Positions 22,400 to 60,141 are shown, counted from the stretch's first letter. The stretch is DNA of 64,000 bases from Candidatus Latescibacterota bacterium (GCA_965215195.1 CBDCDC010000002.1:3552001-3616000); one strand, 5' to 3'. Numbers and translations: made by a program. The notes: generated by a model from the sequence alone, not told the origin.

Positions 22400-22562
22400 T
22401 CAAACAAGCATGCGGACATGGCTTTCTCCTTGACTTTCACATGCGTACCTTTCATTAGATCATAGTGCGTTTGGCAACATCAACGACTCTAGAGCAGCTA
22501 GCCACGCTTGGGGGTGCTTGACATTTCTAATGATATCAGGTTCCGCCAAATTTTTCTGCCAG

Positions 22563-24524: not shown

Positions 24525-24541
24525 TAATCGTTTTTTTTAGC

Positions 24542-26155
24542 ATGACCAGCACTGAGTTGCGTCGCCAATGCTGTCGACGGAAAGCTCGCGGTGGCGGCCC
24601 CAATACTGGGGCCGGACTGCTCGTCGGCTGCGCGGCATTCGCCATCTGCTTCTTGGTATGCACCCAGAAGCTTCTCAGCGAGGAGTCCGACGGACTCGTG
24701 GCGTCGCCAATGCCGTCGACGGAAAGTTCCCGACAGAGTGAACACCACTACAGACTCGGTCTGCGCCATGCGCAGAGCGGTGACTTCCAGAGCGCCGAGC
24801 GGGAATACAGGAAAGCGATCGAGATGGACTCGAATGACATTCGCCCGCACGACGGCCTCGGTTTCATCTATGCTTTGCAGAACAGATTCCGAGAGGCAGA
24901 GGCAGAATTCGAGAGAGTACTGGAGATCAACCCCGACTATGCGCCGTCTCTCTACAAGCTGGGAAAGATCTTCCTGATCCGCCAAGATCGCGAAAAAGCG
25001 AAGGATGCCTACGAAAGAGTGATCGCATCTGAGCCGACATACTTCCCCGCTCATCACGGGCTCGGCATGATCTACTCGCAGGAGGGAAAACCGGCGGCGG
25101 CGGCGGAGCACTTCAAGACTGTGCTCCGGCTCAAGTCCGACTACGGCCCCTCTCGCTATCGACTTGGAGCCATCTATCTTCAGGAACAGGAATACGCGAA
25201 AGCGATAGAAGAACTACAGCAGGCTGCACAGCTAATCGAGAATGAACCGTCAATTCACTACATCTTGGGAAATGCGTACATGGCCATCGGCAGACTGAGC
25301 GAAGCAGCAGACGCATTTGCCGCAACCCTGCGGCTCGACCCCCGCCGTGCAGATGCGCACGACAAGCTGGGGCTCGTCTACACCGAACAATCACACGTGC
25401 CCTTGGGAGCGGCAATGGCAGACCAAGACAAACTCGCTGCCGCCGTGAAGGAACACCGCGAGGCGGTTGAGCTGGCCCCCGACAACGGCTGGTTCCAGCA
25501 CAACCTCGGCATGGCCTATGAGCGGCAGCGCAACTACGAGGAAGCGGCGGCCCAGTACAGAAAGACCCTGACGGTGGAGCCCGACCTTGCGTACACGCGC
25601 TATCGCCTCGGTATGATTTACTTTAGAAACAGGAAATACGAGGAGGCTATCGACCAGTACAGGCAGGCAATTGAGCGCGGGCCGGACAACACGCTCTTCC
25701 ACTACGCCCTCGGAGCTGTGTATGCCCGGACCGGAAGGACCGAAGAGGCGATTGCGGAGTATGAGAAGGCCATCGGACTTGACTACTTCAACGCAGAAGC
25801 GCATTTCGGTCTCGCTAACGCCTATCTCAAGCAAGGGAATCGCGAAGAGGGCGAGAGGGAGATGCAGATATACTGGAAGCAGCGCGAAGGCAACATCGCC
25901 GAACTCGAGCGCAGCGTCGCCTTGGCCCCGGACAATCCTCAGTTTCACTTCGCGCTCGCTGTGCAGTACTCCAGACAGGGGCGGGACATCAGCGCCATCA
26001 ATGAGTACAAGCTCGCCATTGCTCTCGACCCTGCCAATGCCGAATACCATCGCCGTCTCGGCGACGCCTACCTGAAAACGGGCAGGTACCATGAAGCGGA
26101 TGAGCAGTTCCAGCTCGCTCGCCGACTGGAGCCGGCAGACGAGAACGGACCCTGA
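24542..26155 (+). CDS. TPR-repeat protein
   Basis: Regular 34-aa TPR units after an N-terminal hydrophobic segment; start uncertain. Confidence 0.85.
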   Translation: MTSTELRRQCCRRKARGGGPNTGAGLLVGCAAFAICFLVCTQKLLSEESDGLVASPMPSTESSRQSEHHYRLGLRHAQSGDFQSAEREYRKAIEMDSNDIRPHDGLGFIYALQNRFREAEAEFERVLEINPDYAPSLYKLGKIFLIRQDREKAKDAYERVIASEPTYFPAHHGLGMIYSQEGKPAAAAEHFKTVLRLKSDYGPSRYRLGAIYLQEQEYAKAIEELQQAAQLIENEPSIHYILGNAYMAIGRLSEAADAFAATLRLDPRRADAHDKLGLVYTEQSHVPLGAAMADQDKLAAAVKEHREAVELAPDNGWFQHNLGMAYERQRNYEEAAAQYRKTLTVEPDLAYTRYRLGMIYFRNRKYEEAIDQYRQAIERGPDNTLFHYALGAVYARTGRTEEAIAEYEKAIGLDYFNAEAHFGLANAYLKQGNREEGEREMQIYWKQREGNIAELERSVALAPDNPQFHFALAVQYSRQGRDISAINEYKLAIALDPANAEYHRRLGDAYLKTGRYHEADEQFQLARRLEPADENGP

Positions 26156-26166
26156 GCTGACACCGG

Positions 26167-27876
26167 ATGGTTCGCGGATCTCGCCTCTACACCTCTGGGC
26201 TCTATCTCATCTCGCTCTCCCTCTGTGGCCCCTTGCAGGCCGACGACGGGTTCGTGCTCGGCACCCGCGTACAGTTTGTCGATGTCTCGGCCGAGGTCGG
26301 CGTCACCTTGATGAACGTCTCCGGTGATGGCGAACAGCAGTACGTGGTTGATGCCTTCATGGGGGGGTCGGCCTTCTTCGACTACGACCGGGATGGGGAC
26401 CTAGATCTGTATGTGCTGAACGGGTCGAGAGTGGGAGGATTTCCCGGCCGGGATCGTCCGCGCAATGCCCTCTACCGCAACGAGGGTGCGACGTTTTCGA
26501 ACGCCACAGAAGAATCGGGTCTCGGGGACACCGGTTGGGGAATGGGCTGCGCTGTCGCCGATTACGACAACGACGGGGATGGGGACATCTACGTGACCAA
26601 CTACGGCAGCAACGCGCTGTACGAAAATCGGGGAGATGGGGTCTTTGCCGATGTCGCGCAGCGCACCGGAGTCTTCGGAGATGAGGCATTCAGCACTGGA
26701 TGTGCTTTCTTCGACTACGACCGCGATGGTGATCTCGACCTGTATGTGGCGAACTACGTCGATTTCGATCATTTCATGGAAACCACTCCCGACAGGAGGC
26801 ACGAGTGGCGGGGGTTGACCGTCCATTTCGGACCTCACGGGATGCGGGGAGAGGCGGACGTATTCTACCGCAACGAGGGCGAAGGCGTCTTTTCCGATGC
26901 GACGGCCGTAGCCGGTCTTGTGGAGCGCGACATGCTGTACGGACTCGGTGTAGTTGCGGGAGACTACGACAATGACGGCGATTCGGATATTTACGTGGCC
27001 AATGATACGGGGCCCAACTATCTCTACGAGAACAAGGGCGACGGGACCTTTACCGACGTGGCTTGGATGAAGGGTGCGGCATACGGCGAGGGCGGCGAGC
27101 CACAGGGATGCATGGGCATCGCCTTCGGGGACTACGACAACGACGCGTATCCAGACATACTGGTCACCAACTTTTGGGAAGAGACGAACACCTTGTATCA
27201 CAACGACGGAGGGCGGTTTTTCTCGGATCGCACTTTCGATGCGGGAGTGGGGTTGGAGAGCTTCCAGTTCCTCGCTTGGGGCACCGGGTTCTTCGACTAC
27301 GACAACGATGGCGACAAGGATCTTTTCGTCGCCAACGGCCATGTCTATCCGCAGATCGACAGGGCGAACTTGGGAGTCAGCTATGCCCAGACCAATCAGC
27401 TGTTCGAGAACGTGGGGGATGGCACCTTTGCCGAAGTGTCCCGGACCTCGGGCGCGGGACTACAGATCGAGAAGGTAAGTAGGGGCGCTTCTTTCGGGGA
27501 TTATGATGAGGATGGCGACCTCGACATATTCATCTTGGAGCTCAACGATCTCCCGACGCTGCTGCGCAACGACGGGGGGGGTCGAAACAACTATCTGATA
27601 GTGCGAACGGAAGGCACCGAGAGCAACAGAGACGGCATCGGCGCTCGGGTAAAACTCCGCTGCGGGGACGCGACTCAGGTCGCTGAGGTGCGGAGCGGTT
27701 CGAGCTATCTATCGCAGAACGACTTGAGGGTCCACTTCGGCTTGGGCGAATGCACTACTGTAAACCGGCTGGAAGTATTCTGGCCGAGCGGTCTGGTCGA
27801 GAGCTTTGCAGATCTGTCCTCCAACAGGGTCTTGGTGATTCGCGAGGGAAGCGGAATCGTTCAGCAGAGCCAGTGA
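26167..27876 (+). CDS. CRTAC1-like FG-GAP/ASPIC-UnbV protein
   Basis: Repeated DYDxDGDxDLYV motifs; SNRDGIGARV and SGSSYLSQNDLRVHFGLG. Confidence 0.92.
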   Translation: MVRGSRLYTSGLYLISLSLCGPLQADDGFVLGTRVQFVDVSAEVGVTLMNVSGDGEQQYVVDAFMGGSAFFDYDRDGDLDLYVLNGSRVGGFPGRDRPRNALYRNEGATFSNATEESGLGDTGWGMGCAVADYDNDGDGDIYVTNYGSNALYENRGDGVFADVAQRTGVFGDEAFSTGCAFFDYDRDGDLDLYVANYVDFDHFMETTPDRRHEWRGLTVHFGPHGMRGEADVFYRNEGEGVFSDATAVAGLVERDMLYGLGVVAGDYDNDGDSDIYVANDTGPNYLYENKGDGTFTDVAWMKGAAYGEGGEPQGCMGIAFGDYDNDAYPDILVTNFWEETNTLYHNDGGRFFSDRTFDAGVGLESFQFLAWGTGFFDYDNDGDKDLFVANGHVYPQIDRANLGVSYAQTNQLFENVGDGTFAEVSRTSGAGLQIEKVSRGASFGDYDEDGDLDIFILELNDLPTLLRNDGGGRNNYLIVRTEGTESNRDGIGARVKLRCGDATQVAEVRSGSSYLSQNDLRVHFGLGECTTVNRLEVFWPSGLVESFADLSSNRVLVIREGSGIVQQSQ

Positions 27877-28140
27877 CGGCGGCCTGACGTGTATGGAACG
27901 CAACCGATCACCATCGGGGGGCAAAATAGTCACGACTCAACTCATCAGACGGTGTTTGCCCAACTCTTGATTGCAACAAAGAATCGCCCCTCGCTGGTTA
28001 GGCGGCTTCGTCGCTTTTGCCGGTGCAAAAACAGCATACTCTGCTTCCGTAAAATCGCAATAGCGCTCATTCTGGGCTTTCCCCTACTGGAGGAACTGTA
28101 CAGTTGGGAACCAACGACGAGGTTGAGCAAAGGGGAGATC

Positions 28141-29565
28141 ATGTTCGAGCAAATCGGCAAAGGTATCAACGTGGATGTCTCCCATCTTGAAGGTGGTCCA
28201 CCCGAAAAGGTGTTGTATGATCCTGCCCAGTATGATGCCGTCCAAGCAGCGGGATTCCAAAGCGTCCGCTTCTTCGTTGGTGCTGGGGAAGATCCTGCTA
28301 TCTACAAAAACAGGATACAGGACGCGCTTGACCGAGACCTTGCTGTCGTGATCTGCTTGTGGGGGAGCGGTCAATGGGCATCGAAGCCGAAAGAAGGGAT
28401 ACAGGAGTTTGTCGCAATTTGGGATAGAATTGCGAAGTACTACAAGGACTACCCCGGTAGCGTTGTCTTTGAACTTTGGAACGAACCGGCGGGGCTGATA
28501 GTGGAACCGGGAGGGATTCAGGGGATAAAGGACGGCAAAACCGTTATGGAATACCTCAACGCGGCGATCCCCATCATCAGGAAGACCAACCCAGACCGCA
28601 CTCTCGGAATCGGCGGACCTGGCTTTAACGGGTGTCGCGAACTCGAGGAATTCGTCACACCGGAATATCTGACGTACAGGCTGGAAGACGGCTCAGGGTT
28701 TGAGGACGACACCAATATCATCGGCATCTTCCACATGTATCAACCTCACAAGTTCACGCATGGAACCTCGGGACTAGGCGAAGTTCCTCGGTGGAAGGAT
28801 GAAGTGAGAGAGCAGATGGCACACCCGGTGGCATGGTCGAAGAAATGGAGGAAGCCTCTGCTTCTGAGCGAATGGGGCGCTTGGGTGCCGCCCTGCCATA
28901 CGGTTGAAGACTTCAAGGCCTATATTGGGTTTGTGGTCGACGAATGCAAGAAACACAACATCGGCTGGATGTATTATTGTGCAGGTTTCAACAACCAATG
29001 GGCCTTCAACATTCTCAATACCGAGGACGGTTGGAACCAGGACGCACTTGATATCCTTACGGAAGTCACGGCCCCCCCGCCTCCGCCTATGTCGCCACTC
29101 ATCAATTCGGAGTTCAGCAGCGGAACTGATCACTGGACTAGCGAAGGGTCCGTGCAGATGTCCATGGCGAGGAGCGCAGGCCTGAGCGGCTTGGCTGCAC
29201 TCAAAGTGGAAATCAAAAAATCGGACCGTGCCGAAATCTATCAGGAAACCCCGAAGAGAGAGTGGAGTCCTCCGGGTAGATACCTGATCTCCCTGAGAAA
29301 GGGAAGGCTCTATAAGGTATCCTTCTTGGCCAAGTCCGTGGGTGGGATGGGAACTCTCAAAGTGCGATTGGCCGACGTCTCCGGTTCGAGCGATGGGTTT
29401 TGGACATCCCCGCCGGTGACAATCTCGAACGCAAAAAGGGAATATACGATTGAGTACAAGCATACCGGCAGGGATGTAAGAGATGTCCGGGTGGCGTTCC
29501 TGTTTGGCGACAGAGACCAGGTTACCCTGCTGGATCGAATTGCACTGCACGGCTATCGGGAATAG
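28141..29565 (+). CDS. GH5-family glycoside hydrolase with C-terminal CBM4/9-like domain
   Basis: FELWNEP, FHMY, LLSEWG, IGWMYY; start ATG 28141 after GGGGAG. Confidence 0.82.
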   Translation: MFEQIGKGINVDVSHLEGGPPEKVLYDPAQYDAVQAAGFQSVRFFVGAGEDPAIYKNRIQDALDRDLAVVICLWGSGQWASKPKEGIQEFVAIWDRIAKYYKDYPGSVVFELWNEPAGLIVEPGGIQGIKDGKTVMEYLNAAIPIIRKTNPDRTLGIGGPGFNGCRELEEFVTPEYLTYRLEDGSGFEDDTNIIGIFHMYQPHKFTHGTSGLGEVPRWKDEVREQMAHPVAWSKKWRKPLLLSEWGAWVPPCHTVEDFKAYIGFVVDECKKHNIGWMYYCAGFNNQWAFNILNTEDGWNQDALDILTEVTAPPPPPMSPLINSEFSSGTDHWTSEGSVQMSMARSAGLSGLAALKVEIKKSDRAEIYQETPKREWSPPGRYLISLRKGRLYKVSFLAKSVGGMGTLKVRLADVSGSSDGFWTSPPVTISNAKREYTIEYKHTGRDVRDVRVAFLFGDRDQVTLLDRIALHGYRE

Positions 29566-29672
29566 GTAGCAGCACTCGGAAAACGCGGATTACAGATCTG
29601 GCTAGCATCAGCCTAGAGACGACGGCTAAGGCCACCCCTCAGGCACTTTATTATTGAGGAGCGCGATGACCC

Positions 29673-31334
29673 CTACCGCACGGTAAACGCTGCCTCGAGC
29701 CTGTCCTCGTGGATTGACACCTCTGACTCGTAGCGGCTGTGCAGTTCCTTCATGTACTCGTTGAACGCGTTCCGGTGTCTCTCGCGTCTGAGCTGAGATC
29801 GGACCTTCATCTCAGCTTCGGCAAAGGTCTCGCGCTTGCGTTCCCGGGAGAGCACCTTGAAGATGGAGTAGCCCTCCTGCACCTCGACCGGTCCCGTGAG
29901 CTCGCCGATTTCGGCCTCAACCGCAGCTTCCACAAAACCGCCGAACTGGGGCGATTCGTAACGATGCACGTGGAATCGACCCTCGTCATCACGCACCTCA
30001 AGCGCGCGAATCGAATGTCTCTTCGCTAGGTCGCCCAAGGCGGTGCCGTCCTCAATCATCCCTTTCAACTGTAGTGCTTCTATTTCTGTTCTTACGAGGA
30101 TTTCCTGCACCTCGGTCTGTTCGGGATGCAGGAATCTCTCAGCGTTGTCCTCGTAGTACTGGCTCAGGTCGTCTTCAGTGATAGTCACTTTCTCCTTTAA
30201 CATCTTGGACCTGAGGACCCTTACCAATAGCTGTTTTCCCTGCTCTTTGAGCCATCGGGCCACTTCCTCTTCGCGATCGATCCCCTGGCGCACAGCCGCC
30301 TCCTGAATCATCACGTCCGGGACGATGTACTGCTCGACGAAGGAGGCCACCTGATCGGCGTCGCGGAGTGTCTTTAGGCCATTGCCCTTGCGGCTTTTGG
30401 CCGCGCCAATGAGGTCGGTAGCTGTGATCTGTCCGCTGTCGTACTGGTAGAGTACGATCGCAGATGGGTCGTGGCCGACAGCCGCCGCACCGGGGCGCAG
30501 TGCCTCAACGGCAGCGGCTATGCCGTCTCGGACCGGCTCAAGGCGGTATTTGTCCCTCAATTCCGCCACCAGCTCGGCCTTCGCGATTCTGCGCTTCTTT
30601 CGTTCGAGTTCTTTAGCGACTTTCATCCGCTGCTGCGGATTGAACTGAGCGGTCGTCTCATCGAGAATCTTGAAGATGGCGTATCGGTCACCGATTCGAA
30701 CCGGATCCGACACCGAGCCTACAGCGAGCCCGAACAGCTTCTCGGCGAGGCTGGGAATCATCTCGTACCTAGTGGTGAACCGGCCTGTGTCCCCGCCCCG
30801 GGCAGCGGTCTCTTCGTTCATCGACAGCTTCCTCGCGACATCCGCGAAGCTCGCCCCTTCCTCGATCTCCCTCGCGGCCTTCTCTGCCGTCGCGAGGTCG
30901 GCGACCAGGATGTCGCCTAGTCTGACAGCGCGGGCGAGCCCCTCCCGGTCTATGTACTCTTCTACTTCACCGTCTTCTACCGTTGCGTCGATCGCTCTTC
31001 GCTCGTACTCAAGGACGAGCTTCGCCTTCCTGATCCGGATCATCTTGGTCAGGTAGGCCGAGCTCTTCTCGAGGCCTTGGCTTCGGGCTTCCAGCAGCAG
31101 CAGTTCTATGTCGATCATGGTCTGTAGATGGTCTCTCAACGGCATCTTCCCGGCCTCCTCGCCCTTGGCGTACTCGGGCAGTTTGGCGAGGAAATCCCGC
31201 ACGTCCTGGACAGTGATCGTCTGGTCTCCAACCGCCGCGACCGTGGGATTTTCATCCTGCGGTCCGCAGCCTGTGCAAACTAAAAGGATCGCTAGGCTGC
31301 CTAGCGATCCGTAGGATAGAGAAAAAGCCCGCAT
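29673..31334 (-). CDS. PpiC/PrsA-type peptidyl-prolyl isomerase lipoprotein with two rotamase domains
   Basis: Lipobox-like VCTGC; FADVARKLS...RGGDTG and LAKRHS...GELTGPVEVQEGYSIFKV. Confidence 0.88.
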   Translation of the reverse strand: MRAFSLSYGSLGSLAILLVCTGCGPQDENPTVAAVGDQTITVQDVRDFLAKLPEYAKGEEAGKMPLRDHLQTMIDIELLLLEARSQGLEKSSAYLTKMIRIRKAKLVLEYERRAIDATVEDGEVEEYIDREGLARAVRLGDILVADLATAEKAAREIEEGASFADVARKLSMNEETAARGGDTGRFTTRYEMIPSLAEKLFGLAVGSVSDPVRIGDRYAIFKILDETTAQFNPQQRMKVAKELERKKRRIAKAELVAELRDKYRLEPVRDGIAAAVEALRPGAAAVGHDPSAIVLYQYDSGQITATDLIGAAKSRKGNGLKTLRDADQVASFVEQYIVPDVMIQEAAVRQGIDREEEVARWLKEQGKQLLVRVLRSKMLKEKVTITEDDLSQYYEDNAERFLHPEQTEVQEILVRTEIEALQLKGMIEDGTALGDLAKRHSIRALEVRDDEGRFHVHRYESPQFGGFVEAAVEAEIGELTGPVEVQEGYSIFKVLSRERKRETFAEAEMKVRSQLRRERHRNAFNEYMKELHSRYESEVSIHEDRLEAAFTVR

Positions 31335-31366
31335 CAAGCACCTCCACTCAAGCTCGCGTCTATGCC

Positions 31367-34075
31367 CTAATCTAGACCGGCGTACATCGTGGCAAAGGAT
31401 ACGCTGCCCGTCTCGGTCTCGTTATCTATCGATCTTCTGGTCAATCTCATACCCATGTTCGTCAAAAGCCGGTAACCGAGGTAGTTGGTGACGTTCGAGA
31501 ACTGCACCGCTCCGACGATCTCGGTGAAATCGTCGAGCAGTCCCTCCTTGACCGCGGTCTCCGATTTGCGTAGCTGGTTGAAGATCGTGTACTCCACACC
31601 GGCCTGCATGGTGGAAGAAGAGAACAGCGGCCATCGCGCCAGCAGGGAAAGCTGCAGCGTGTCTTCCCTGCGCTTGGGATCAGACCTGAGCGCCGGAGCC
31701 TCCAGCCTGAGTTCGTTCTTTATTCTCGGCATGAGATCGACATAGGCGACCTTGCGCTCGAGGTCCACCTTGTTGATGAGACCGAAGAAGGTGTAGTCCT
31801 CGCGCAGATCGGGCTGTCGTTCGTTCTGGTGCCAGCGATCGTATTTGAACTTACTCACGAAATTCACATCCTCGATCTTGGTGTACTTGAAGCTCATGAA
31901 CGTGGAGTTTATCCATGTGTCCTGAGCCGCGAGGGGATCAACGGTTGGAACGTTCCGCCTCTCGAACTCGTTCCACTGGCGAAGATCGTTCTCGATGTTG
32001 TCCTTCGCGATTCTGAAATTCTCGTAAATCTTCAGCCTTCCAAGACCCGGATAGTCCCGTTCTAGGGTGAAGAGCACGTAATTAGTCGTGTTCTCCCCGT
32101 CGCCTGCAATCAGTCTCTCATCCGTTCGTCCGACGGTCAGCCTAATGCTCGGAAGCAGGTCGACGCCGCCGTAGATGTTGTATCCTTTGTGGTCCCTCGG
32201 GTAGGGAAAATCCGGCTCATCGTCGTTTTCGAACCGATCTACCCAGATGTTGTTGTTCATGTCTAATCCGAACAAGTACTCCGGCCGGTCTGTTCCGTAT
32301 CTCAAGAACGGCTCGTCGTAGTCCGGGACGAGATTGGGAAGGTCTTCGCTGTCGTTCTGGTTGAAATCGGATATGAAGTCGAGGTTTTCGTCGTACCCGG
32401 GAAACACCTCAATGTCTATGTTTTGGAATATCCTCTGCCAGTCGGGGAATCTGTCCTGATCGTCGTTGTCGTCGACGAGCTCGTAGAAGAACCTCCCCTC
32501 GTCCGAGTAGTCTATGTTGGTCTCGCCCCTAGCCAGTATGGCGCTGGTGTTGTAGTTGTGGGCCATTCTGTAGGCTTCGCTGAAAAAGAAGAAAGGATGG
32601 GCGATCTTCGACAAATTCAACATCCAGCCATCGCCTTGGTCAGAGGCCCCTAGGTGCTTGGTGTGCGCCCTGTTGGGGTACTTCCTGTAACTCACGCTGC
32701 GGTCCCATTCTCCGTACAAGTCGAATCCCCAGAGGCGGGTCGCCTCCAGCGTAAATCCGAATATCTCGGTGGCTGTCGGCAGACCATACGGGATCTTCAG
32801 GACTGTCAGGTTGGAGCCATCCTTGACGTTTTCATCGGCCCTCGCAGCCAGCAGATAGACGTTGGCCAACTGCCTGTCGAACTGGCGGTCCGAGGTCATC
32901 TCGATTCTGTAGTCGTTGGCGACTATCAGCTCGAATGTCACCATTCTTATCTCTGACGGATCCGGGCCTGTGTACGTCGCCACCGAGAAGTCGTAGACCA
33001 GTTCGATCTGCTCGGAGCCGTTCGCCTCCCAGAACCCCAGCCTCTGAAAGCCGCCTTGGGGCGCGGGAATCAGCCCGACTTCGCTGGCCCGGACGGTCTC
33101 CCTCTCGAAACTCACATCCCCCGCTTCATCGATCGCTTCGACGTCGGCCTCTATGATCATGTCCCACGCGAACAGCGTGGCACCGCCTTCGTTGTCCTCT
33201 GGCGAGTCGTCCGAGAGTCGCACGAAGACCTGAGTGACGTTCTCTGCGTTCTGACTGGAGGCGATCGAACCGCTTCGCGGGCTGCCCTCGAAGGCGTCGA
33301 GGAGCTGAGAGGAGTTGTGGGCGCTCACGTGGTTGACACCGAGTTTGAGATAATCTCCAACTTGGGCTGTCGCGCGTCGGCCGGTCAGAGTCGTCGAGTT
33401 CGTCTGCTGGTTATTGGGGCTTCGCGAGCCGGCGGCACCCGGCGAGCTGATCCGCGAGAGGAGAGCCGTTACTTCGTACTTGTCGGACTGATAGTCCACC
33501 TGAATGCCGTCGAACGCCGGCTTAGAGAAGGTCATCGGGGTCAGGGTCGATCGGATCTCGTCGCCTATGGTGATGGCCAGATTGTGCTGTCCCTTCTGAT
33601 CGGAGGCTATGACCAGATTGCTGAAGAAACTCTGGAACCGTGCGGTCTTGAACAGGTTGCTTCCCCCTTGCTGGGGCTGGGTCTGGCTCCAGTCGTAGAT
33701 CAGCCATCCTCTGGTGATGTACGAACCGTAGATGTCGTAGAAGTAGTCTCCCTCGAGATTGGTCGATACATAGCGCTGGTAGTGATCTCTCGCGTAGTTG
33801 CTGTACTCCGACTGCTTCCACTGATATTCGCGAAACAGCTCCTGTGGGACGTACCACTTTTTGACCGCGGGGTCTAGAGCGCCGAACAGGACGCCGGGCC
33901 CTGTCGGTTCGAACGTGAGCTCGCCGCCGCGGCGAAACCCCTTTATCCGATCTCGATCGGGACCTTGGGCTTCCGAGCGAGTACTGTGCAGCAGAATTGC
34001 CGAGACGATGGTGCATCCTATGGCCAGCGCACCGATTAGGCGCATCGCGGCTCTGAATGTATGACCGGTCACCAT
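31367..34075 (-). CDS. 902-aa exported protein, predicted outer-membrane beta-rich
   Basis: Signal peptide, aromatic-rich amphipathic strands, Asp-rich loops, C-terminal SFATMYAGLD; no family recognised. Confidence 0.7.
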   Translation of the reverse strand: MVTGHTFRAAMRLIGALAIGCTIVSAILLHSTRSEAQGPDRDRIKGFRRGGELTFEPTGPGVLFGALDPAVKKWYVPQELFREYQWKQSEYSNYARDHYQRYVSTNLEGDYFYDIYGSYITRGWLIYDWSQTQPQQGGSNLFKTARFQSFFSNLVIASDQKGQHNLAITIGDEIRSTLTPMTFSKPAFDGIQVDYQSDKYEVTALLSRISSPGAAGSRSPNNQQTNSTTLTGRRATAQVGDYLKLGVNHVSAHNSSQLLDAFEGSPRSGSIASSQNAENVTQVFVRLSDDSPEDNEGGATLFAWDMIIEADVEAIDEAGDVSFERETVRASEVGLIPAPQGGFQRLGFWEANGSEQIELVYDFSVATYTGPDPSEIRMVTFELIVANDYRIEMTSDRQFDRQLANVYLLAARADENVKDGSNLTVLKIPYGLPTATEIFGFTLEATRLWGFDLYGEWDRSVSYRKYPNRAHTKHLGASDQGDGWMLNLSKIAHPFFFFSEAYRMAHNYNTSAILARGETNIDYSDEGRFFYELVDDNDDQDRFPDWQRIFQNIDIEVFPGYDENLDFISDFNQNDSEDLPNLVPDYDEPFLRYGTDRPEYLFGLDMNNNIWVDRFENDDEPDFPYPRDHKGYNIYGGVDLLPSIRLTVGRTDERLIAGDGENTTNYVLFTLERDYPGLGRLKIYENFRIAKDNIENDLRQWNEFERRNVPTVDPLAAQDTWINSTFMSFKYTKIEDVNFVSKFKYDRWHQNERQPDLREDYTFFGLINKVDLERKVAYVDLMPRIKNELRLEAPALRSDPKRREDTLQLSLLARWPLFSSSTMQAGVEYTIFNQLRKSETAVKEGLLDDFTEIVGAVQFSNVTNYLGYRLLTNMGMRLTRRSIDNETETGSVSFATMYAGLD

Positions 34076-34102
34076 GTGACTCCCCCTATCCTTCGCGAAA
34101 AA

Positions 34103-35845
34103 TCAATAGACCAAAGGCACGACCGCAGTCTTGCTCTCTTCACCTTTATCTGTAGCGACTTCCACGCGCACGAGATAGACGCCCGGCGATAGCATTTGTC
34201 CGTTGTCGTCCACGCCGTCCCACACTCTCTGATATCTTCCACCGATGTCGAGGTCGGAGTAGAGCACCCTTCTGAGGCCTCCGGCGAGATCGTAGACTTG
34301 TACCGACACCGGAGAGCCACCCGTCAGGTTGACGATATCGTAGATGACGATGGCTTGGTCGTTAACTCCATCGCCATTGGGCGTAAACGGAGCCGGGGCA
34401 ACCTCGAGGAAGTGGATGCGGTTGTCGGCGACCCGGGTGGTGACCGACAGGTCGTCGCCCGCGGCGACGGGGTCAGCGTCCACGTCTCCCGGGACGAGCG
34501 TCTGCGGCAGGTTATGCGGTCTCTGGGTGTCGAAGATCCTGCCGACGAAGACGGTGTTGTAGTGCAGCGCGATACTCTCGAACACGACGCGCAGCAGCCG
34601 GTCGTCACCGGTGATCCTCGGGAAGCTGATCCGGACGCCGACGATGTCGCCGTCGTCTTCGGTGTCCTCCTTGTCCCACGCCACGTCGGTCCCGTCGATC
34701 TGGACGGATCGGATGACCTCCACCGGTGCCTGCGTCTTGATGTCGAGCTGGTCGAAGCCGCTGCTGTTGTAGCTGCGCACCCAGTAAGTCAGTTCGGTCG
34801 CCTGCCCGAGCACGGCGTCTTGGGGCCACACCTCCCCCACCACGGAATCGGCCAGTGCTGGCGAGACCTCCACGGCGATCGAATCGACCGTCGCTGCCGA
34901 GAGGATGTCGCTGCTGTGGAACAGAACGCGAAACTGCCAGTACCGGCGGGGTACAGGTGATGCGATCGGTGTACGGACTCCGGCCGGATAGGGAGGAGAC
35001 CATCCGCTCCACTTTAGGCTATCGCTCGGGTCCGGCGTACTGCCTCTGCGGGTGGAGACGGTAGCAGATACCTTGGTAGGCTCTCCTATCGTCTCCTTTG
35101 CCCACGTTATACCGCCGAAGACAGCGGGCTGACCCTCATCGAACACATTCGAAGTGTACGCAGCAGCAGATGGGAAACCTTCGCCGAAGATCTCAAACTC
35201 GTCGATCTCCCATTCCCCTCGAACGAGCTGTCTCACCTCTATGAAACGCACGAATTGCAGCGGCACAGCTATGTCGACGACCGGGTCGAGATTGCGCTCA
35301 ACGGTCTTGAAGAGCCTGAGATCGGGATTGCCGGAAACGGTCTTCTGCTCCTCGCTGCCGTCGTTCAGCCTCACCTCGTAACCCTTCAGGAAGAACTCCT
35401 CAAACCCTTCGCGGGGAAAAAATCTGATCCTGTTGACTCCGAAACGCTCGCCCAGATCAAACCTGAATATGATCCCTGTGGCCTTTGGGATCTTGACTTC
35501 GAAGGCCGTGTTCCTGCCATCCACCATGTTGTCCAACAAGTCCTCGAATTCACTCTGGGTGACTGCGAGGACCGTGCGCGCATTTGGCGACGTTATTTGC
35601 CCCCCCCTTTCGATCAACTTCAGGGAAATATTCTCTTCAGGATCATTCTGTAACGGTTGAATGAAACCGGGATTGGCTTCGAAATCGATGACCGTTATGT
35701 CAGAATGTGCCTGATCCCAGGCGCGGGAACCCGGGCCACCTCCGAAGACGATCGTCTCTCCATTGCCTGCCGCCGCAAGTCCGAGGAGAGCTACGGACAG
35801 AACGGGCAGGGCCACTGCTCTATGAGGTGACGTTCCAGTTATCAC
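34103..35845 (-). CDS. Exported discoidin-like plus FlgD-Ig protein (paralogue 2)
   Basis: FDLGERF, WSGWSPPY, IASPVPRRYWQFR, PFTPNGDGVND, WDGVD...PGVYL; ends VPLVY. Probable GTG start at 35845. Confidence 0.8.
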   Translation of the reverse strand: MITGTSPHRAVALPVLSVALLGLAAAGNGETIVFGGGPGSRAWDQAHSDITVIDFEANPGFIQPLQNDPEENISLKLIERGGQITSPNARTVLAVTQSEFEDLLDNMVDGRNTAFEVKIPKATGIIFRFDLGERFGVNRIRFFPREGFEEFFLKGYEVRLNDGSEEQKTVSGNPDLRLFKTVERNLDPVVDIAVPLQFVRFIEVRQLVRGEWEIDEFEIFGEGFPSAAAYTSNVFDEGQPAVFGGITWAKETIGEPTKVSATVSTRRGSTPDPSDSLKWSGWSPPYPAGVRTPIASPVPRRYWQFRVLFHSSDILSAATVDSIAVEVSPALADSVVGEVWPQDAVLGQATELTYWVRSYNSSGFDQLDIKTQAPVEVIRSVQIDGTDVAWDKEDTEDDGDIVGVRISFPRITGDDRLLRVVFESIALHYNTVFVGRIFDTQRPHNLPQTLVPGDVDADPVAAGDDLSVTTRVADNRIHFLEVAPAPFTPNGDGVNDQAIVIYDIVNLTGGSPVSVQVYDLAGGLRRVLYSDLDIGGRYQRVWDGVDDNGQMLSPGVYLVRVEVATDKGEESKTAVVPLVY

Positions 35846-35883
35846 TTGCTGAACACGGACTCCTTGGTGTCCTGTCGCGGAGA

Positions 35884-38622
35884 CTAGTAGGCGACGCGCA
35901 CCAATCGATGGACCGAGGTTTCCTTCTCGGATGTCGAATCCACTTTCAGGTCGATGCGCATCAGATAGATCCCCGGTGGCACGACCGCTCCCGACTGGTC
36001 GACGCCCGTCCACGCCACCGTATGACGGCCTGCCATTATGGTCGTCTCGGCTATACGCGCCACCGGCCGGCCAGCCAGATCGTACACGTCCACTTGGACC
36101 GGTGCCGAACTGAGCACCCGCATCAGCGAAAAACGGACCTCCAGCTCGTCGTTGACGCCATCTCCATTGGGCGTGAAAACGCGATCGACCTGTAGATCCC
36201 CCAGCAACTCGCCGCGCTCCAGCGCCAACACCACCGTCGTCTCGCTGTCCACAACCCCGTTGGCATCGCCGTCATCCACCCGCTGCCACGAATTTTCGAA
36301 CGCCGAGTTCCCCGTGGAGCCGATGAAAAACGTGTTGAACCCGAATAGGGTCGTCTCGAACTGGAGCTCCACCAGCGCGGATCCCCTTGTCGTCTTGATC
36401 GGGGCCGGCAGACGCACCCACAGCGAATCCGTCTCCATCACCACCTCGAACTCCTCGCTCTCCGCCGTATACGTCACGGCGTCCTGCCCGGTCACGTCCA
36501 CACTCACCTGTTTCAGCTTCATGTCGGTGCCGTCGGGCGCCTCAATGAGGATCTCGTCGAACCCCCTGCTGCCCGACTCAAAGGTTGAGCGAATGAAATA
36601 CGACAGCAGCAGCTTCGTGCCGATCTTCTCCAGACGCGAGGGCAGCACCTCGCCGACGATCGCGCCGGCCACCGGCGTCACGAAGTTCAGTGCCACCGAA
36701 CGCAGCGTGGCCGCCGCCTTGGGGTCTTCTGTCAGGAAGATCGCCCTGATGGCGACGAACCGTCTGGGACTGGGCGAGGTAATTTTTGCGCCTGAATCGA
36801 AGTAGGGCTGACTCCAGCCGCTCCAGTCATTGCCCGGGCGCGTCTCGGTTAAGACCGGCCCTACCGAAGCATCCCCGAAGAACTTTTTGTCCGTCTCCCA
36901 GGCCTTGGCCGCCTCCTCTTCGGTGCCCGGGTACAAATCCCCGTTCTTCTTGTAATAACGGGTTATGCTCTCGACCGTATCGCCAGTCCGGGTTTGCAAA
37001 ATTAGATCCGTACCCGGCGGTACATCGGCCTCCCATTCAATGGTGGCTAGGTTCTGAGGGATCCGCGCCACCTCTATGAACGGGGCCTCCCCTCCGAACT
37101 CAGACGAGATCTGCGACTCCGGCAGGAACCCTTCCCCGAAAAATTGGACCTCCGACACCCCGTGGCTCCCTTGCCCGGGCTCGTACGTGGAGCGGTCGTG
37201 GAGCCTATAGGTAAAGGCAAAATGCTCGACCTTCGTGAGCGGGAACTTGAAGTCGTGGAAATTCTGCCCCCGCACGATGTCGCTGAGCAACCCCACTGTC
37301 TTCCAAGCCAGTTCGCCGCCGGCATTGGTGGAGCCGTCCGAGAGCTGAATGCGGTAGGCTCTGAACGGAGGTGGGTTGGGGAGGGCGTGGAGTACTCTGA
37401 TATTGTCCACAAAATAGGAGCCTCCGAGATCTATGAACATTGAGCGCTCCGCATCCCGCGGATCCGCAATCGGCAACCTGTTGGGATCGTAACTCCCGTT
37501 GGCAGACCAGAACACGAGCTCGCCGAAGAGGTCCCCATCTACCACGGCCGCCCCCTTGTTGACATTCTCTCGGGCGGTCACCCTGCCGCCCCGCTCCAGT
37601 ACGCCCGTGCCGATGTTGTCGCCGATGGTCCAGACCTCGATCTCGGCCAGCCTCGGTGTTTCGCGGCGGTAGTAAACTACCGGCCCCTGCCGCTCCGTGC
37701 CCGCCAGAGCTTCCCAATCCTCTTTCCCATCCAGCAACCTCACCGCCCCCGACACTTCTCGCCGGAAGTACTCTATCTCTCCCTGTTGGTCGGCTGGCAG
37801 GCTATCGTATTCGGACTGAGAAACCTGCCTCGCCTTGTCGAAGTCGCTGTCCTGGATCCCCACTCCGACGTATTGGATGACGTCGCCGGTGAAGTCGCCC
37901 AGTGCATCGGGCCACTTCGTCGGTAGCTGTCCGGTCAGGTCGATCTCGAAAACCCGCTCGTTCTTGTTCGGTCCGTCCGTGGTGAAGCGCGTCCGGAAAA
38001 GGAGCTGATCGAGGGTTTTCTGTCCTTGTGAGGTGGTCACCTTGAACTGTAGAAAAGGGTCTCCCAGATCTTCACCGACAAACTTGAGGACGATCCTGGT
38101 GGCCGATACCGTCCGCCCCAGATCGATCTGCACCCACCAATCCTGCAACAGGTCGGCCGTGTCCGGTTCCCAGAAGGTGTCCATCCTGCCATCCATGAGG
38201 TTGATGGCGCTCGAGCGATTGGATCCGGCATCGAATACACCGCCGCCGAAATCGTCGGCATTGAGGACGGCGTTGATGCCGGGAACGACGACTTCCTCAT
38301 CTTCTATTTTTAGTCTCGTGTGCTTGCGGATGAAGGCGGGCTTCACTCCCTCATCGCTGATCTGGACCGTGTTGGCAGTGGAGTGCCAGCGTTCCCAATG
38401 CTCCTTGGAATCGACGACCACCCTGCCTGACTGTAGCGAATACCCCTCCTGTCCCCAGCATGGACTTACCGCCGACAACGTCAACGCGGAACAGACGAGT
38501 GCCGTGCGGAGGGGGTCCGTTAGCCGTTGAGCGCCGACCCATCCCCGCTCGCGGTGCTCCCTACCTACACCGCGAGGCACTCGGGTTCTCGTCGAGTTCA
38601 GCAATAGTGCCGTTGAGCGCAC
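35884..38622 (-). CDS. Exported protein with two discoidin-like units plus FlgD-Ig (paralogue 3)
   Basis: IDLGRTV and IDLGGSY, WSGWSQPY, ITSPSPRRFV, FTPNGDGVND, WTGVD...PPGIYL; ends VRVAY. GTG start after AAGGAG. Confidence 0.8.
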   Translation of the reverse strand: MRSTALLLNSTRTRVPRGVGREHRERGWVGAQRLTDPLRTALVCSALTLSAVSPCWGQEGYSLQSGRVVVDSKEHWERWHSTANTVQISDEGVKPAFIRKHTRLKIEDEEVVVPGINAVLNADDFGGGVFDAGSNRSSAINLMDGRMDTFWEPDTADLLQDWWVQIDLGRTVSATRIVLKFVGEDLGDPFLQFKVTTSQGQKTLDQLLFRTRFTTDGPNKNERVFEIDLTGQLPTKWPDALGDFTGDVIQYVGVGIQDSDFDKARQVSQSEYDSLPADQQGEIEYFRREVSGAVRLLDGKEDWEALAGTERQGPVVYYRRETPRLAEIEVWTIGDNIGTGVLERGGRVTARENVNKGAAVVDGDLFGELVFWSANGSYDPNRLPIADPRDAERSMFIDLGGSYFVDNIRVLHALPNPPPFRAYRIQLSDGSTNAGGELAWKTVGLLSDIVRGQNFHDFKFPLTKVEHFAFTYRLHDRSTYEPGQGSHGVSEVQFFGEGFLPESQISSEFGGEAPFIEVARIPQNLATIEWEADVPPGTDLILQTRTGDTVESITRYYKKNGDLYPGTEEEAAKAWETDKKFFGDASVGPVLTETRPGNDWSGWSQPYFDSGAKITSPSPRRFVAIRAIFLTEDPKAAATLRSVALNFVTPVAGAIVGEVLPSRLEKIGTKLLLSYFIRSTFESGSRGFDEILIEAPDGTDMKLKQVSVDVTGQDAVTYTAESEEFEVVMETDSLWVRLPAPIKTTRGSALVELQFETTLFGFNTFFIGSTGNSAFENSWQRVDDGDANGVVDSETTVVLALERGELLGDLQVDRVFTPNGDGVNDELEVRFSLMRVLSSAPVQVDVYDLAGRPVARIAETTIMAGRHTVAWTGVDQSGAVVPPGIYLMRIDLKVDSTSEKETSVHRLVRVAY

Positions 38623-38674
38623 TTCTTTCTCCTTATCTTGCTCCCTGCTCATGTCGGAAACGCCGTTGAGTGCC

Positions 38675-38715
38675 AAAAAAAGGGGGGGCGAGGATCAACG
38701 ATCTCGCCCCCCCTT
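38675..38715 (-). terminator. Intrinsic terminator between the 306-aa gene and the rest of the operon
   Basis: Minus strand GGGGGGGCGAG...CTCGCCCCCCC followed by T7. Confidence 0.85.
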
Positions 38716-38756
38716 CAACAACACCTGTCTTGGGTCCTTACAGCCGACCTTTCTTC

Positions 38757-39674
38757 CTATTTGGAGAAGCTCGCCTTAATGCGGCCCCAGCTATCGTCCT
38801 CGACCGCTGTGGCGTCGGTGTCGGACACCCAGTTGTTGGCGTCAAAACCAAGTAGCACGTAGTCTACCAAGGAGTCGGCGTGGAAGTACATGTTGATGTC
38901 GCCAGTGGAGACCCAGTAGCCGTTGTACGAATCGCCTGGGCCGTTGTCATCGTCCTGAATGGCCATGCCGATGCCCATGACCTGGCCTTCCTCCAAGTCA
39001 TGGATAATCAGGTCGGGATCGTCGGGACCGGTCGAACTGGCAGGCAAGTCGTCGAAAGTGGTGAACCAACTCTCCTGAAAGAGGGTGGCGGGTCCACCGG
39101 CCTCGCCCTCGACGTTCCATCTGATACCGGCGTAAGGCTCCACGGAAGCCCATACTCCGCCGCCCCATAACCACAGGTTGTTGTCCTCGTTATTGAGCGA
39201 CTGCTGCCAGTCCTGCGCGGTGGCCCCGGCCCATCGTTCCGGATCTAGGTCGATAGATTCCACGCCTTGGAACTGTTGGCCGCTGTGGTCGGCATCAATC
39301 ACGAGCTCGAGCTTGTCGTTGGTATCGTCGAGGGTGCCGTACCAGACGTCGTCGAACCTTTCCTCCATGACGTACACAAGGTTAGTCTCTGGGTTCCAGC
39401 CGACGATGATGCGCTCGGCGAGATTGCCCGGATCCGGGTCCCCTTGGGTGCCCGTGACGACCTCAATTAGGTCATCTTGGGTTACCCAGAAGACAGACGG
39501 TACGTTGTCCCAATCGCTGAGATCACCATCCATTACGACATCCCTGATTCCATCGACGTCAATGGGCACCTGTACCGCTGCCCAGTTCCGGTCTGTCCGC
39601 TGGTGGGCCGAACTCGGAGTAAAGGAGGCGAGAACGAGGCCCAAAACGGCAGCTATGATGATAATCTTCTTCAC
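38757..39674 (-). CDS. Secreted acidic CBM9/DOMON-like protein with C-terminal TAVExxSWGxIK motif
   Basis: Signal MKKIIIIAAVLGLVLASFTPSSA, MDGDLSDW, VGWN...LVYVMEERFDD; ends ATAVEDDSWGRIKASFSK. Confidence 0.8.
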   Translation of the reverse strand: MKKIIIIAAVLGLVLASFTPSSAHQRTDRNWAAVQVPIDVDGIRDVVMDGDLSDWDNVPSVFWVTQDDLIEVVTGTQGDPDPGNLAERIIVGWNPETNLVYVMEERFDDVWYGTLDDTNDKLELVIDADHSGQQFQGVESIDLDPERWAGATAQDWQQSLNNEDNNLWLWGGGVWASVEPYAGIRWNVEGEAGGPATLFQESWFTTFDDLPASSTGPDDPDLIIHDLEEGQVMGIGMAIQDDDNGPGDSYNGYWVSTGDINMYFHADSLVDYVLLGFDANNWVSDTDATAVEDDSWGRIKASFSK

Positions 39675-40356
39675 TGTTGCTTCTCCTTTCATCTGTAGAA
39701 AGATGACTATTGTTACTGCGTTGATTCTGAAATGCGGGCTTTTCCCTTGAACACCTCCTTTCAGCGCACCATTTGCTCAGCGAGCGAGAGCAAACAGGAA
39801 CTGGTGATTTTGTGCAAAAATGGCTCTAAGCGCTTCTTTATTAGCCACTGTGAATAAGTAACTTACGGTCTTTATGGATGAGTGACCGGCGTTCGTCTCT
39901 CTGCATTGAATCACACAGTTAGGAAGTTGTAAAAGCAATTTGGCGTTAAATATGGGGAATTATGCCCGAAAATCCAAAGAAAATTTCCAGCATGTTAATG
40001 CCCCAAGCAAGATAGACATCGCCCGTGTACGCGCCACCCATAACGGCAAAGACGTCGTGATCGAGGTTGCCGAAGGAATCGTCCCTTGCGGCGGGCCAAT
40101 TCCTGCTCCAGTTCGGCGATTCGCGTCGTCTGTTGTTCCACGATCTGCTCGAACTGGACAATGCGCTTTCGGAAATCGCAATCTCAGCAGGTCTTTTCAC
40201 GAGGGTTTGCCCGTATCCGGAGAATTGCAACACACAACCGGACCCGAAGACCGGATAGTACTAGCTTTAGGAATCTCTGATTTAGTATCCTGAAAAGGCT
40301 TTCCTACTTGGCGATTACCTTACTACTATAAAGGAAGACAAGCGGAGGTAATAGCG

Positions 40357-40575
40357 ATGGATCAGCTCAGTTTTTCCGATGCCGCCTACCCCCACAAAAA
40401 GAAGACCATTCGCAAAGAACGCTTCCTTTCGGAGATAGACGACCTGTTGCCGTGGAAACTCTTACTCAAGCTCATTGTGCGAAAGTATCCAAAACCGGGT
40501 CAAGGGGCCGGCCGGTTCCCCCCGAGGTGGTGTTACGCATCTATTTCATGCAACAGTGGTATGGCCTCAGCGTCA
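40357..40575 (+). pseudogene. IS5-family transposase N-terminal fragment
   Basis: MDQLSFSD...KKKTIRKERFLSEIDDLLPW...YPK; after a frameshift, PEVVLRIYFMQQWYGLS. Confidence 0.8.
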
Positions 40576-40669
40576 GCAGAAGGCCCAATCCGACGGGGTA
40601 GAGTGGCGCGTTCTTCGCAAGATCGCTCCTTTAATAACCCCTCCAAACCGCTAAAAATTTCACTTGGGT

Positions 40670-40814
40670 AGAAGCTGTTTCAAAACTAGCGTCGGGTCGC
40701 ATCAAGGATCGTCAAGTGCCTTCGCATGGAGCGTTTTTCATAGGGCGAGACGCTTTTGAGCCGACGCTTTTTCTTTACACAAGGAACCGAATCCGGAGTT
40801 TTGGGACCACTTCT
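40670..40814. mobile_element. Short IR-bounded non-coding element (MITE-like)
   Basis: Imperfect IRs AGAAGCTGTTTCAAAACT and AGTTTTGGGACCACTTCT, with TAG at both ends. Confidence 0.5.
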
Positions 40815-40834
40815 AGTTCTTTCGCAAGGCGTAG

Positions 40835-44025: not shown

Positions 44026-44109
44026 CTCCGGTTCCCTTTCTGTACTACGGGCTATCTGCGCCAGTGTCAACCATAGCTCAATATCCCCACGGGCAATGCC
44101 CCGTCGCCC

Positions 44110-44450
44110 TGCGCTGCCATGAAAAGAACAGGGGGTTGAGGTTGATGCCGCCGTGCCCGTAAGCCATGACCAAGGTGACGTAGGAGGAACCCGCCAAGCT
44201 GACCAAGATGGCGAGGACAATCGCCGGGAACAGCCGACGCTTCTGGCCGCGGATCATCTCATTCATCTTCAGCCCGTTGGCGACCGAGGCCATCACGAAG
44301 GAGCGGACCTCGGCGTACCAGCCGTAGGAGAAGCCGAGCGCCACTAGGCCTTGGGTGCCGATGGAGGAGGTGCCGACCGCGGAGATCACGAAGGTTGAGG
44401 TCATTAGGGGAGGACGCATGGCCGGGATGCCGCCCTCGGCGACCACCCCC
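44110..44450 (-). pseudogene. Internal fragment of a polytopic membrane protein (DUF6785-like)
   Basis: VVAEGGIP...AYGHGGINL segment with no plausible N- or C-terminus. Confidence 0.55.
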
Positions 44451-60135: not shown

Positions 60136-60141
60136 GAACCC

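Follow-up and report, generated by a model that had tools for sequence, protein, structure and literature searches.

The polysaccharide utilization loci (PULs) of Bacteroidota, built around SusC and SusD, occur as dozens of paralogous loci that combine an outer-membrane barrel with exported proteins of carbohydrate-binding type, often together with a locus-specific glycoside hydrolase or an inner-membrane transporter; the Sus binding proteins are lipoproteins. Another arrangement is found with the type IX secretion system (T9SS), where barrels of the PorP/SprF type, a family of roughly 300 amino acids (aa) in size, serve proteins with type B C-terminal domains in Bacteroidota. Genes with CHU_C-type tails then stand directly beside the barrel gene in many copies, as for SprB/SprF of Flavobacterium, and the genome encodes SprA and PorU. 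Chaperone-usher operons bring together a small gene, a terminator, a large barrel and a folding factor, and in E. coli lptD and surA form a gene pair. These are the described systems closest to a locus analysed here in a stretch of 64,000 nucleotides (the window; positions 3552001-3616000 of contig C2, genome G000) from a Candidatus Latescibacterota bacterium (GCA_965215195.1), whose 6.13-Mb genome has two contigs and a G+C content of 60%. Five genes, named T, F1, F2, O and P (Table 1), run in one direction on the minus strand and fill positions 29673-39692 with spacers of 27-80 nt. Signal-peptide-like N-termini were recognized by eye in all five translations. The five co-directional genes with export signals reported in the first-pass annotation of the window are confirmed, and they are tightly packed. 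The locus is one copy of a multi-copy, Latescibacterota-wide module, quite possibly one for the capture and uptake of polymers, analogous to the Sus loci and not homologous to them.

The first-pass annotation had seen a single dedicated operon, an assignment that had to be abandoned because the locus is one of 38 paralogous clusters in its own genome. Searches by blastp identified 53 paralogues of O (40 scoring at least 535 bits and 13 divergent), 137 open reading frames (ORFs) of the F type, 34 of P and 25 of T, and by tblastn T has 28 paralogous places. The clusters often read T-F-F-F-O-P (T-Fa-Fb/Fc-O-P) or a permutation of it. Assignment of the F-type ORFs to three classes by their best query from the window, which is coarse, gave 45 Fa, 51 Fb and 41 Fc beside the 53 O, close to a 1:1:1 relation with O, and all three classes are found together in 16 of the 38 clusters. 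The closest copy (C2:4767744-4779596) has the order T-Fa-Fb-Fc-O-P and is 61-76% identical per gene. Its Fa gene, 61% identical to the one of the window, stands between T and Fb. The displaced position that Fa occupies in the window (Table 1) is retained in a 97%-identical relative (L067).

Several further gene groups recur around the O copies. One BLAST-linked group with TPR and FG-GAP/ASPIC domains, as seen from Pfam scans of its representatives, has 42 members near an O, and 14 of 45 DUF6785/DUF6784 membrane proteins lie within 8 kb of one. Other groups found at this distance are a 250-aa family without Pfam match (14 members), ABC permeases, a MalK-like ATPase with a TOBE domain and DUF4159 proteins. 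The GH5 protein encoded beside the present locus has no paralogue, and its nearest solved structures are endoglucanases (7vt5, E 4e-17). The genome also encodes 21 ordinary Plug-domain receptors, all of them away from the locus. Its one SusD_RagB match (C2:2053347-2053700) has a TAA stop within the frame and lies beside a Plug receptor at C2:2049536; the two may be a decaying classical SusC/D pair.

A few clusters are organized differently. Tandem divergent O-like barrels (97-250 bits) were found as groups of three at C1:164604-198473, C2:2505257-2542180 and C2:3754603-3792588, and two tandem O genes are present at C2:1878590-1907043. A TPR gene of 1040-1090 aa lies near three tandem-O clusters (C1:170194, C2:1895984 and C2:2510362), as does a DUF4159 gene (C1:167947, C2:2513591 and C2:3765616). 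The tandem-O clusters look like a distinct and perhaps older form of the system.

The module is not confined to this genome. At least 633 stretches in species-representative genomes encode a relative of O, and the best 80 come nearly all from metagenome-assembled genomes (MAGs) of Latescibacterota. Counts of related loci given here refer to these 80, among which many incomplete ones are short contigs. An F gene adjoins O in 80 of 80 loci. P was found in 58 of them, T in 57, and the full set of T, F and P in 48. Of 151 genomes sampled evenly across the phylum, 96 have O and 93 have T; three carry O only and none T only. Presence follows the families: both genes are found in all 64 genomes of family f1 and in none of the 30 of f2 or the 18 of f3. 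The genes thus co-occur in other genomes, F beside O throughout and O and T in the same families, as the first-pass annotation had anticipated. Families f2, f3 and f4 (for example genomes G007 and G063) include 50 near-complete genomes of the same class without O, T or the C-terminal tag pattern of T described below, and with few F-type domains; they form a natural comparison group. No published description of this module was found in those parts of the full-text literature that the search reached. The module appears to be built round a new family of predicted barrels, and neither barrel nor tag, judged from sequence, belongs to a Pfam family.

O has no match in Pfam or NCBIfam at E ≤ 0.01, the Plug, TonB_dep_Rec, LptD and usher families included, and its family profile found no PDB sequence at E ≤ 1. 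Among the database candidates that were scored, 1031 are related to O at E ≤ 0.001. Each of them either lacks a name or is annotated as hypothetical, none has a Pfam domain, and those with a label come from MAGs of Latescibacteria or Gemmatimonadota. The structure model, built from a 42-row alignment, has a mean per-residue confidence (pLDDT) of 74.5 and a predicted template-modelling score (pTM) of 0.73; it is all-beta, with ~26-28 long antiparallel strands by our own count. Foldseek returned only generic outer-membrane barrels (SlpA, MtrB, BtuB, LptD, FimD, porins) at TM-scores of 0.14-0.28. VIA-align placed 50 unrelated barrels in a flat list between Z 13.5 and 11; the nominal top match is the FimD usher, with 334 residues aligned at a root-mean-square deviation of 5.1 (Z 13.5). 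All structural matches listed are bacterial outer-membrane barrels except mouse VDAC1, a mitochondrial outer-membrane barrel. The Atlas offered only DUF6029, at 0.88, which is below its trusted range, and no family name was obtained. From its model, O is predicted to be a large barrel of the outer membrane that belongs to no named family. The outer-membrane role earlier proposed for the 902-aa protein is upheld by this, as the model is all-beta and not that of a soluble enzyme, and no characterized system was matched. A TonB-dependent transporter was also considered for O and rejected, given that neither Plug nor TonB_dep_Rec matched.

Two segments of O stand out in the alignment. Residues 29-108 are modelled with pLDDT < 50, yet the segment of residues ~59-127 (about 33695-33901, minus strand) contains many Trp and Tyr that vary little or not at all. 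Residues 505-628 form an insert (about 32192-32563, minus strand) with more than 20 invariant acidic or amide residues (D536, N537, D538, D539, D541 ... D622); the model renders both segments poorly or only in part. This Asp/Asn-rich insert is probably calcium-binding, and strand parity counted from the C-terminus of the model would place it on the periplasmic side or in the lumen.

The F proteins are linked by their C-termini. F1 has a discoidin-type domain (F5_F8_type_C_2, PF22633; 39.8 bits, residues 159-228) and a tail that matches CHU_C (PF13585; 33.7 bits, cut-off 27), FlgD_ig (PF13860; 33.4 bits) and, weakly, the C-terminal end of PorU (NF033707). Pfam recognizes in F2 the CHU_C/FlgD_ig tail alone (27.8 and 26.5 bits, with a cut-off of 27 in both cases) and no discoidin domain. 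F1 and F2 are 32% identical over their last 315 aa (E 4e-36). Their earlier designation as two paralogous discoidin/FlgD-Ig proteins is therefore correct for the paralogy, for both tails and for the discoidin domain of F1, but not for a discoidin domain in F2. Fa matches CHU_C with 40.1 bits and aligns with F2 along the full length at 30% identity (E 1e-64). No NCBIfam model of type A or type B T9SS domains matched the F tails at E ≤ 0.01. The locus itself contains no recognizable T9SS, usher, Sus or Bam gene, as already remarked in the first-pass annotation, and T9SS components are encoded elsewhere in the genome: SprA (499.4 bits, cut-off 200) and PorU (628.6 bits, cut-off 420), the latter adjoined by a PorV-like gene that stays below its cut-off (147.6 bits against 250). 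With SprA and PorU present in the genome, the F tails are most simply, and probably, type IX sorting domains. In the PorU search at least 50 further ORFs, F1 among them, matched with their C-termini, and the F2 tail has 216 candidates in the genome (34 scored). GldM and PorP (TIGR03519) found no match in the genome, for PorP O included, and none in any control genome either, so that their absence is unproven.

An alternative to uptake arises at this point, the main one and in our view rather unlikely: O would be the outer-membrane anchor or partner of Fa, Fb and Fc as T9SS cargo, and the module would build a surface lectin or adhesin complex instead of an import channel. All three F tails pass the CHU_C cut-off and open with FTPNGDGVND, which we take to be the opening motif of type B domains. 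In all 80 related loci F genes immediately precede O, the near 1:1:1:1 relation of Fa, Fb, Fc and O suggests a fixed complex, and no PorP/SprF match fills the barrel role in the genome. This last point is weak evidence, because TIGR03519 matched no control genome. Moreover, O, with ~900 aa and ~26-28 strands, is unlike PorP/SprF, and the PorP model matched nothing, O included. The F-type C-terminal domain was found in 151 of 151 genomes of the phylum, with only 8-33 candidates in the O-less families f2-f4; such cargo needs no O in general. The F tails have multiplied along with O, but the tail itself is not dependent on O. The transporter genes and carbohydrate-active enzymes found near many copies also fit uptake better than surface display.

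T ends with a short tag (Table 1) that proved to be widespread. The motif WG.[ILVM]K lies within the last 30 residues in 62 of the 81 ORFs of the genome that contain it, and the stricter form [ST][AS][VI]..WG.[ILVM]K selected 45 genes. The model of T has low confidence at the tag (pLDDT < 50 for residues 296-311), with a helix at 302-310. In 20 tagged proteins outside the BLAST family of T, the Pfam domains recognized are FGE-sulfatase, LTXXQ, PD40, SBP_bac_3, Cache, lipocalin-like, WD40, fasciclin, Temptin_C and HmuY. No Pfam match overlaps the tag stretch in the tagged proteins scanned. WGxIKxxF is followed by 0-12 mostly polar residues and no hydrophobic stretch. A signal of the LPXTG, PEP-CTERM or GlyGly-CTERM kind, considered for the tag, was ruled out, as there is no hydrophobic helix behind the motif. 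Its occurrence on many unrelated exported domains indicates, at the level of sequence, that the tag is a proteome-wide signal and not a marker of pilus subunits. The view of the tag as a mark of this operon or of its subunit has to be given up: at least 45 proteins carry it, on unrelated domains, and 21 of the 45 genes are more than 10 kb from any O.

Across the 151 sampled genomes, the strict DNA pattern AVE-xxx-WG-x-IK was found in 74, all O-positive, and in none of the 55 O-negative genomes; a reversed-pattern control found nothing anywhere. In the 13 genomes sampled from family f10, O and T are present and the strict pattern is missing; a variant tag may be used there. Nesting of the tag within O-positive genomes is suggestive only, related genomes not being independent. 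One further observation concerns a relative (G055, C2:4105865-4115449), where seven matches to the tag pattern follow each other at ~1-kb intervals in what looks like a tandem array of small tagged genes.

The distribution of the tag could also mean that O reads it, that is, that the barrel recognizes TAVExxSWGxIKxxF and carries or docks tagged periplasmic proteins such as T, which would be a new sorting route. We consider this improbable. Numbers are similar (53 O and 45-51 tagged genes), 24 of the 45 tagged genes have an O within 10 kb (6.8% among the other genes), and the strict tag is confined to O-positive genomes; the near-invariant segment ~59-127 of O is modelled at low confidence, as an interaction site could be. 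The 21 tagged genes far from any O speak against it, as do the f10 genomes, and shared ancestry alone could yield the nested distribution. A complex prediction of O (residues 37-902) with the tail of T (268-311) scored 0.00; run without controls, it gives no verdict and is neutral on binding.

T matches no Pfam or NCBIfam family at E ≤ 0.01, CBM9 (PF06452) included, and its fold is nevertheless recognizable. The model (pLDDT 87.4) was matched by Foldseek to the CBM9 structures 1i82 (E 9e-9), 7nwn (2.2e-8) and 7nwo (5.2e-8), with TM-scores on the target of 0.70-0.75 (0.70 for 1i82 and 0.75 for 7nwo), and more weakly to DOMON-like heme subunits. The Atlas clusters nearest to T have PF06452 in 13%, 37% and 94% of their members, and a tagged paralogue (L059) reaches only 16.2 bits with this family (cut-off 23.4). 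T has the CBM9 fold in its model, shared with the CBM9 module of Thermotoga maritima Xyn10A (PDB 1i82) and the DOMON-like fold, and the earlier label "CBM9-like" is right at fold level; sugar binding is a prediction.

The 40-row alignment of T showed a further feature. His30 (39585-39605, minus strand) directly follows the predicted signal-peptide cut A-x-A|H, and a histidine is present there in at least 90% of the rows. No row deviates at H136 (in DADHSG), D114, E207 or D249. A mature protein that begins with histidine resembles the histidine brace of copper proteins. Alternatively, His30 could coordinate heme or calcium within the DOMON-like fold, and T-family proteins could be metal-dependent partners and not plain lectins.

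A strong intrinsic terminator, previously noted after T, is real. Its 11-bp G/C stem (38713-38703 paired with 38692-38682) is extended by three inner pairs (ATC/GAT) and followed by eight T (38681-38674). The hairpin lies 44 nt past the T stop codon and has a folding energy of -28.7 kcal/mol as computed by script. A scan with consensus promoters and terminators gave no more sites than in shuffled sequences and missed this terminator. A strong hairpin with a T-run was found in the genome after 12 of 51 tagged genes and after 154 of 4606 other genes, with 1 of 53 for O, 4 of 136 for F and 0 of 34 for P. The related loci have a terminator after 31 of 61 tagged ORFs. It follows orthologues of T in eight of them (L067, L069, L071, L074-L077 and L080), where the hairpin sequences differ between lineages. 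The recurrence of the terminator after tagged genes of the genome and its relatives fits a production of T in excess of the other genes.

The first-pass annotation had suggested looking for a step in transcript coverage at about 38.7 kb. The RNA data are assembled contigs of four libraries from different studies; they stem from relatives 90-95% identical to the genome and held 8-14% of the sampled words. Contig depths for T were 72-88 in run X2 and 166-306 in run X6 against 1-20 downstream, a ~10-15-fold difference, though depth is one figure per contig, which is not a sound measure of expression and cannot rank genes. A single 3411-nt contig of run X1 bridges T and most of F1, and run X4 has no depth step. 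A step in two of four runs, with one run bridging it and one lacking it, is a weak hint only.

Gene order was the ground on which the locus had first been likened to chaperone-usher pilus operons, with T polymerized through O as a major subunit, minor subunits supplied by the F proteins, and P acting as chaperone. An abundant small gene is followed by a terminator, larger genes, a barrel and a periplasmic folding factor, O is roughly usher-sized, and FimD is the nominal top VIA match. This analogy did not survive closer inspection and fibre assembly of this kind is very improbable: the five proteins have no match to Usher or PapD-type families in Pfam and NCBIfam, and the order alone remains. 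T is a complete CBM9-fold sandwich without a Pfam pilin or fimbrial family, unrelated porins rank within 1-2 Z units of FimD in a flat list, the tag is common to unrelated enzymes and binding proteins, and P is a parvulin-type peptidyl-prolyl cis-trans isomerase (PPIase) without a Pfam match to the Ig-like PapD-type chaperones.

P matches PF13145 (75.7 bits) and PF00639 (64.7 bits), with rotamase stretches at residues 150-224 and 386-508. A SurA_N_3 match is weak (24.2 bits, cut-off 27.2), and no NCBIfam equivalog reaches its cut-off. The N-terminus LLVCTGC is lipobox-like. A hydrophobic-x-[GAS]-C motif was seen by eye in ~29 of the 34 P proteins of the genome, and a regular expression flagged 16. 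Two rotamase domains and a lipobox-like motif agree with the two-domain PpiC lipoprotein first described. The two PpiC domains and the weak SurA N-terminal match relate P to the parvulin-type chaperones SurA and PrsA, and its gene directly follows that of a large barrel, as in the lptD-surA pair.

The uptake of polymers by this module would proceed as follows. The type IX system would carry Fa, Fb and Fc out of the cell, and these would stay on its surface as binding proteins. An enzyme particular to the locus (here the GH5) would cut the polymer, and the fragments would cross the outer membrane through O, a conduit gated by its Trp/Tyr-rich N-terminal segment, by the invariant Asp/Asn-rich insert, or by both. 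T, made in excess, would be kept by the proteome-wide tag either at the barrel or in the periplasm and bind sugars there, and P would assist the folding or assembly of O or of the F proteins. This proposal draws on a paralogy typical of substrate-specific uptake loci, on the co-conservation of the genes, on the CBM9 fold of T and the discoidin-type domain of F1, on the nearby GH5 and on the import genes found near other copies. The predicted barrel structure of O, the SprA and PorU genes and the enriched terminator after T also speak for it.

A number of observations weigh against uptake. O has no recognizable plug, TonB box or energy coupling; a barrel of 26-28 strands modelled without a plug could equally house or anchor a protein; and the flat structural ranking with FimD first means that the fold does not point to import. 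The tag is also found on classically periplasmic domains (SBP_bac_3, LTXXQ, Cache), so that T may never reach the surface. The present locus has no inner-membrane transporter gene, and RNA depth, drawn from imperfectly identical relatives, is inconsistent between runs. Transport, binding and localization are all predicted, from sequences and models. The F tail of O-less genomes is counted here as well, although it neither supports nor excludes uptake.

The limits of the genes were examined individually (Table 1). The probable start of T is the GTG at 39674, preceded by AAGGAG 7 nt ahead, which gives a 305-aa protein, in agreement with homologues of 303-305 aa. F1 probably starts at the GTG at 38622, six bases after AAGGAG (912 aa), because this AAGGAG-GTG unit is intact in a close relative that has ~45 nt deleted just past the terminator. 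The F2 ORF overlaps the end of F1 and its start codon is therefore not fixed.

Table 1. Features of the locus, in positions of the 64,000-nt window.
Feature	Position	Strand	Remarks
T, exported CBM9-fold protein (fold from model)	38757..39692	-	ORF of 311 aa
C-terminal tag TAVEDDSWGRIKASFSK of T, coding stretch	38760..38810	-	
Intrinsic terminator in the gap between T and F1	38674..38713	-	hairpin and T-run
F1 (class Fb), discoidin-type domain and T9SS-like C-terminal domain	35884..38676	-	
F2 (class Fc), paralogue of F1 with the same C-terminal domain	34103..36013	-	
O, 902-aa predicted outer-membrane beta-barrel, unclassified family	31367..34075	-	
P, lipoprotein-like parvulin-type PPIase, two rotamase domains	29673..31337	-	
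Fa, third F-class gene	22518..24524	+	opposite strand, 5 kb beyond P
Probable accessory genes: TPR, FG-GAP/ASPIC, GH5 with CBM_4_9	24404..29565	+	Pfam

The sequence just past the terminator has a peculiarity of its own. A GCNCTCAACGGC-type repeat, GC[GA]CTCAACGGC, is present in three copies within 150 nt (38523-38673, minus strand), running from there into the 5′ end of F1, where 0.06 copies are expected per window. It is the sole such cluster of the genome, which has 20 single copies overall, and is partly retained in the relative L067 and partly deleted or mutated in L068. The triple repeat was dropped as a candidate operator because it is unique to this locus and overlaps the F1 reading frame in part, and because close relatives retain it incompletely.

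Upstream of T, the region 39693-42313 has a 1.1-kb non-coding spacer that is AT-richer, and no known RNA was found there by Rfam (E ≤ 0.1; 29000-41500 scanned). It is followed by a GDSL-lipase/TPR gene (40835-42313) in a stretch of 45% G+C, compared with ~60% elsewhere; a second low-G+C stretch is found at 60001-62000. Two long ORFs flank the extended locus, one of 881 aa (19089-21734, plus strand) and one of 549 aa (42571-44220, minus strand), both without a Pfam match. The 881-aa ORF has no paralogue in the genome by tblastn, and neither ORF showed one in the survey of neighbours near O.

Rough arithmetic from copy counts and typical gene lengths puts the whole module at ~0.5 Mb, or 8-9% of the genome. 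If it serves uptake, it would be a second, independent invention of the utilization-locus strategy and would change the annotation of carbon turnover for a widespread uncultured phylum. A wider proposal, that Latescibacterota take up nutrients by an outer-membrane system of their own, in which this barrel family replaces SusC-type transporters, with type IX lectins and a tag read by the barrel, is conceivable but doubtful. If the barrel instead anchors or sorts proteins, the sorting of outer-membrane proteins would gain a new branch next to type IX secretion. Under both readings the barrel, the tag and the CBM9-like protein, with the histidine at its N-terminus, are clear targets.

The likenesses named at the outset are accompanied by clear differences. 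The module shares no homology with the PULs: O lacks Plug and TonB_dep_Rec, and none of the five proteins matches the SusD family. Its binding proteins end in a T9SS-type tail or in a short tag, and a PPIase lipoprotein is a regular member. Compared with SprB/SprF, O is ~3 times larger than PorP/SprF at the family size given above, and the F tail occurs in O-less relatives too. The chaperone-usher operons differ by their usher, PapD and pilin families, none of which is found here, and by the CBM9 fold of T. P differs from SurA of the lptD-surA pair in being lipoprotein-like and in having 34 divergent copies, one per module, and O has no LptD match. T, finally, is a free-standing exported protein of 305 aa and not a module of an enzyme, as CBM9 is in Xyn10A; it is ~100 residues larger and has, in addition, a near-invariant histidine at its predicted mature N-terminus and a sorting-type tag at its C-terminus.

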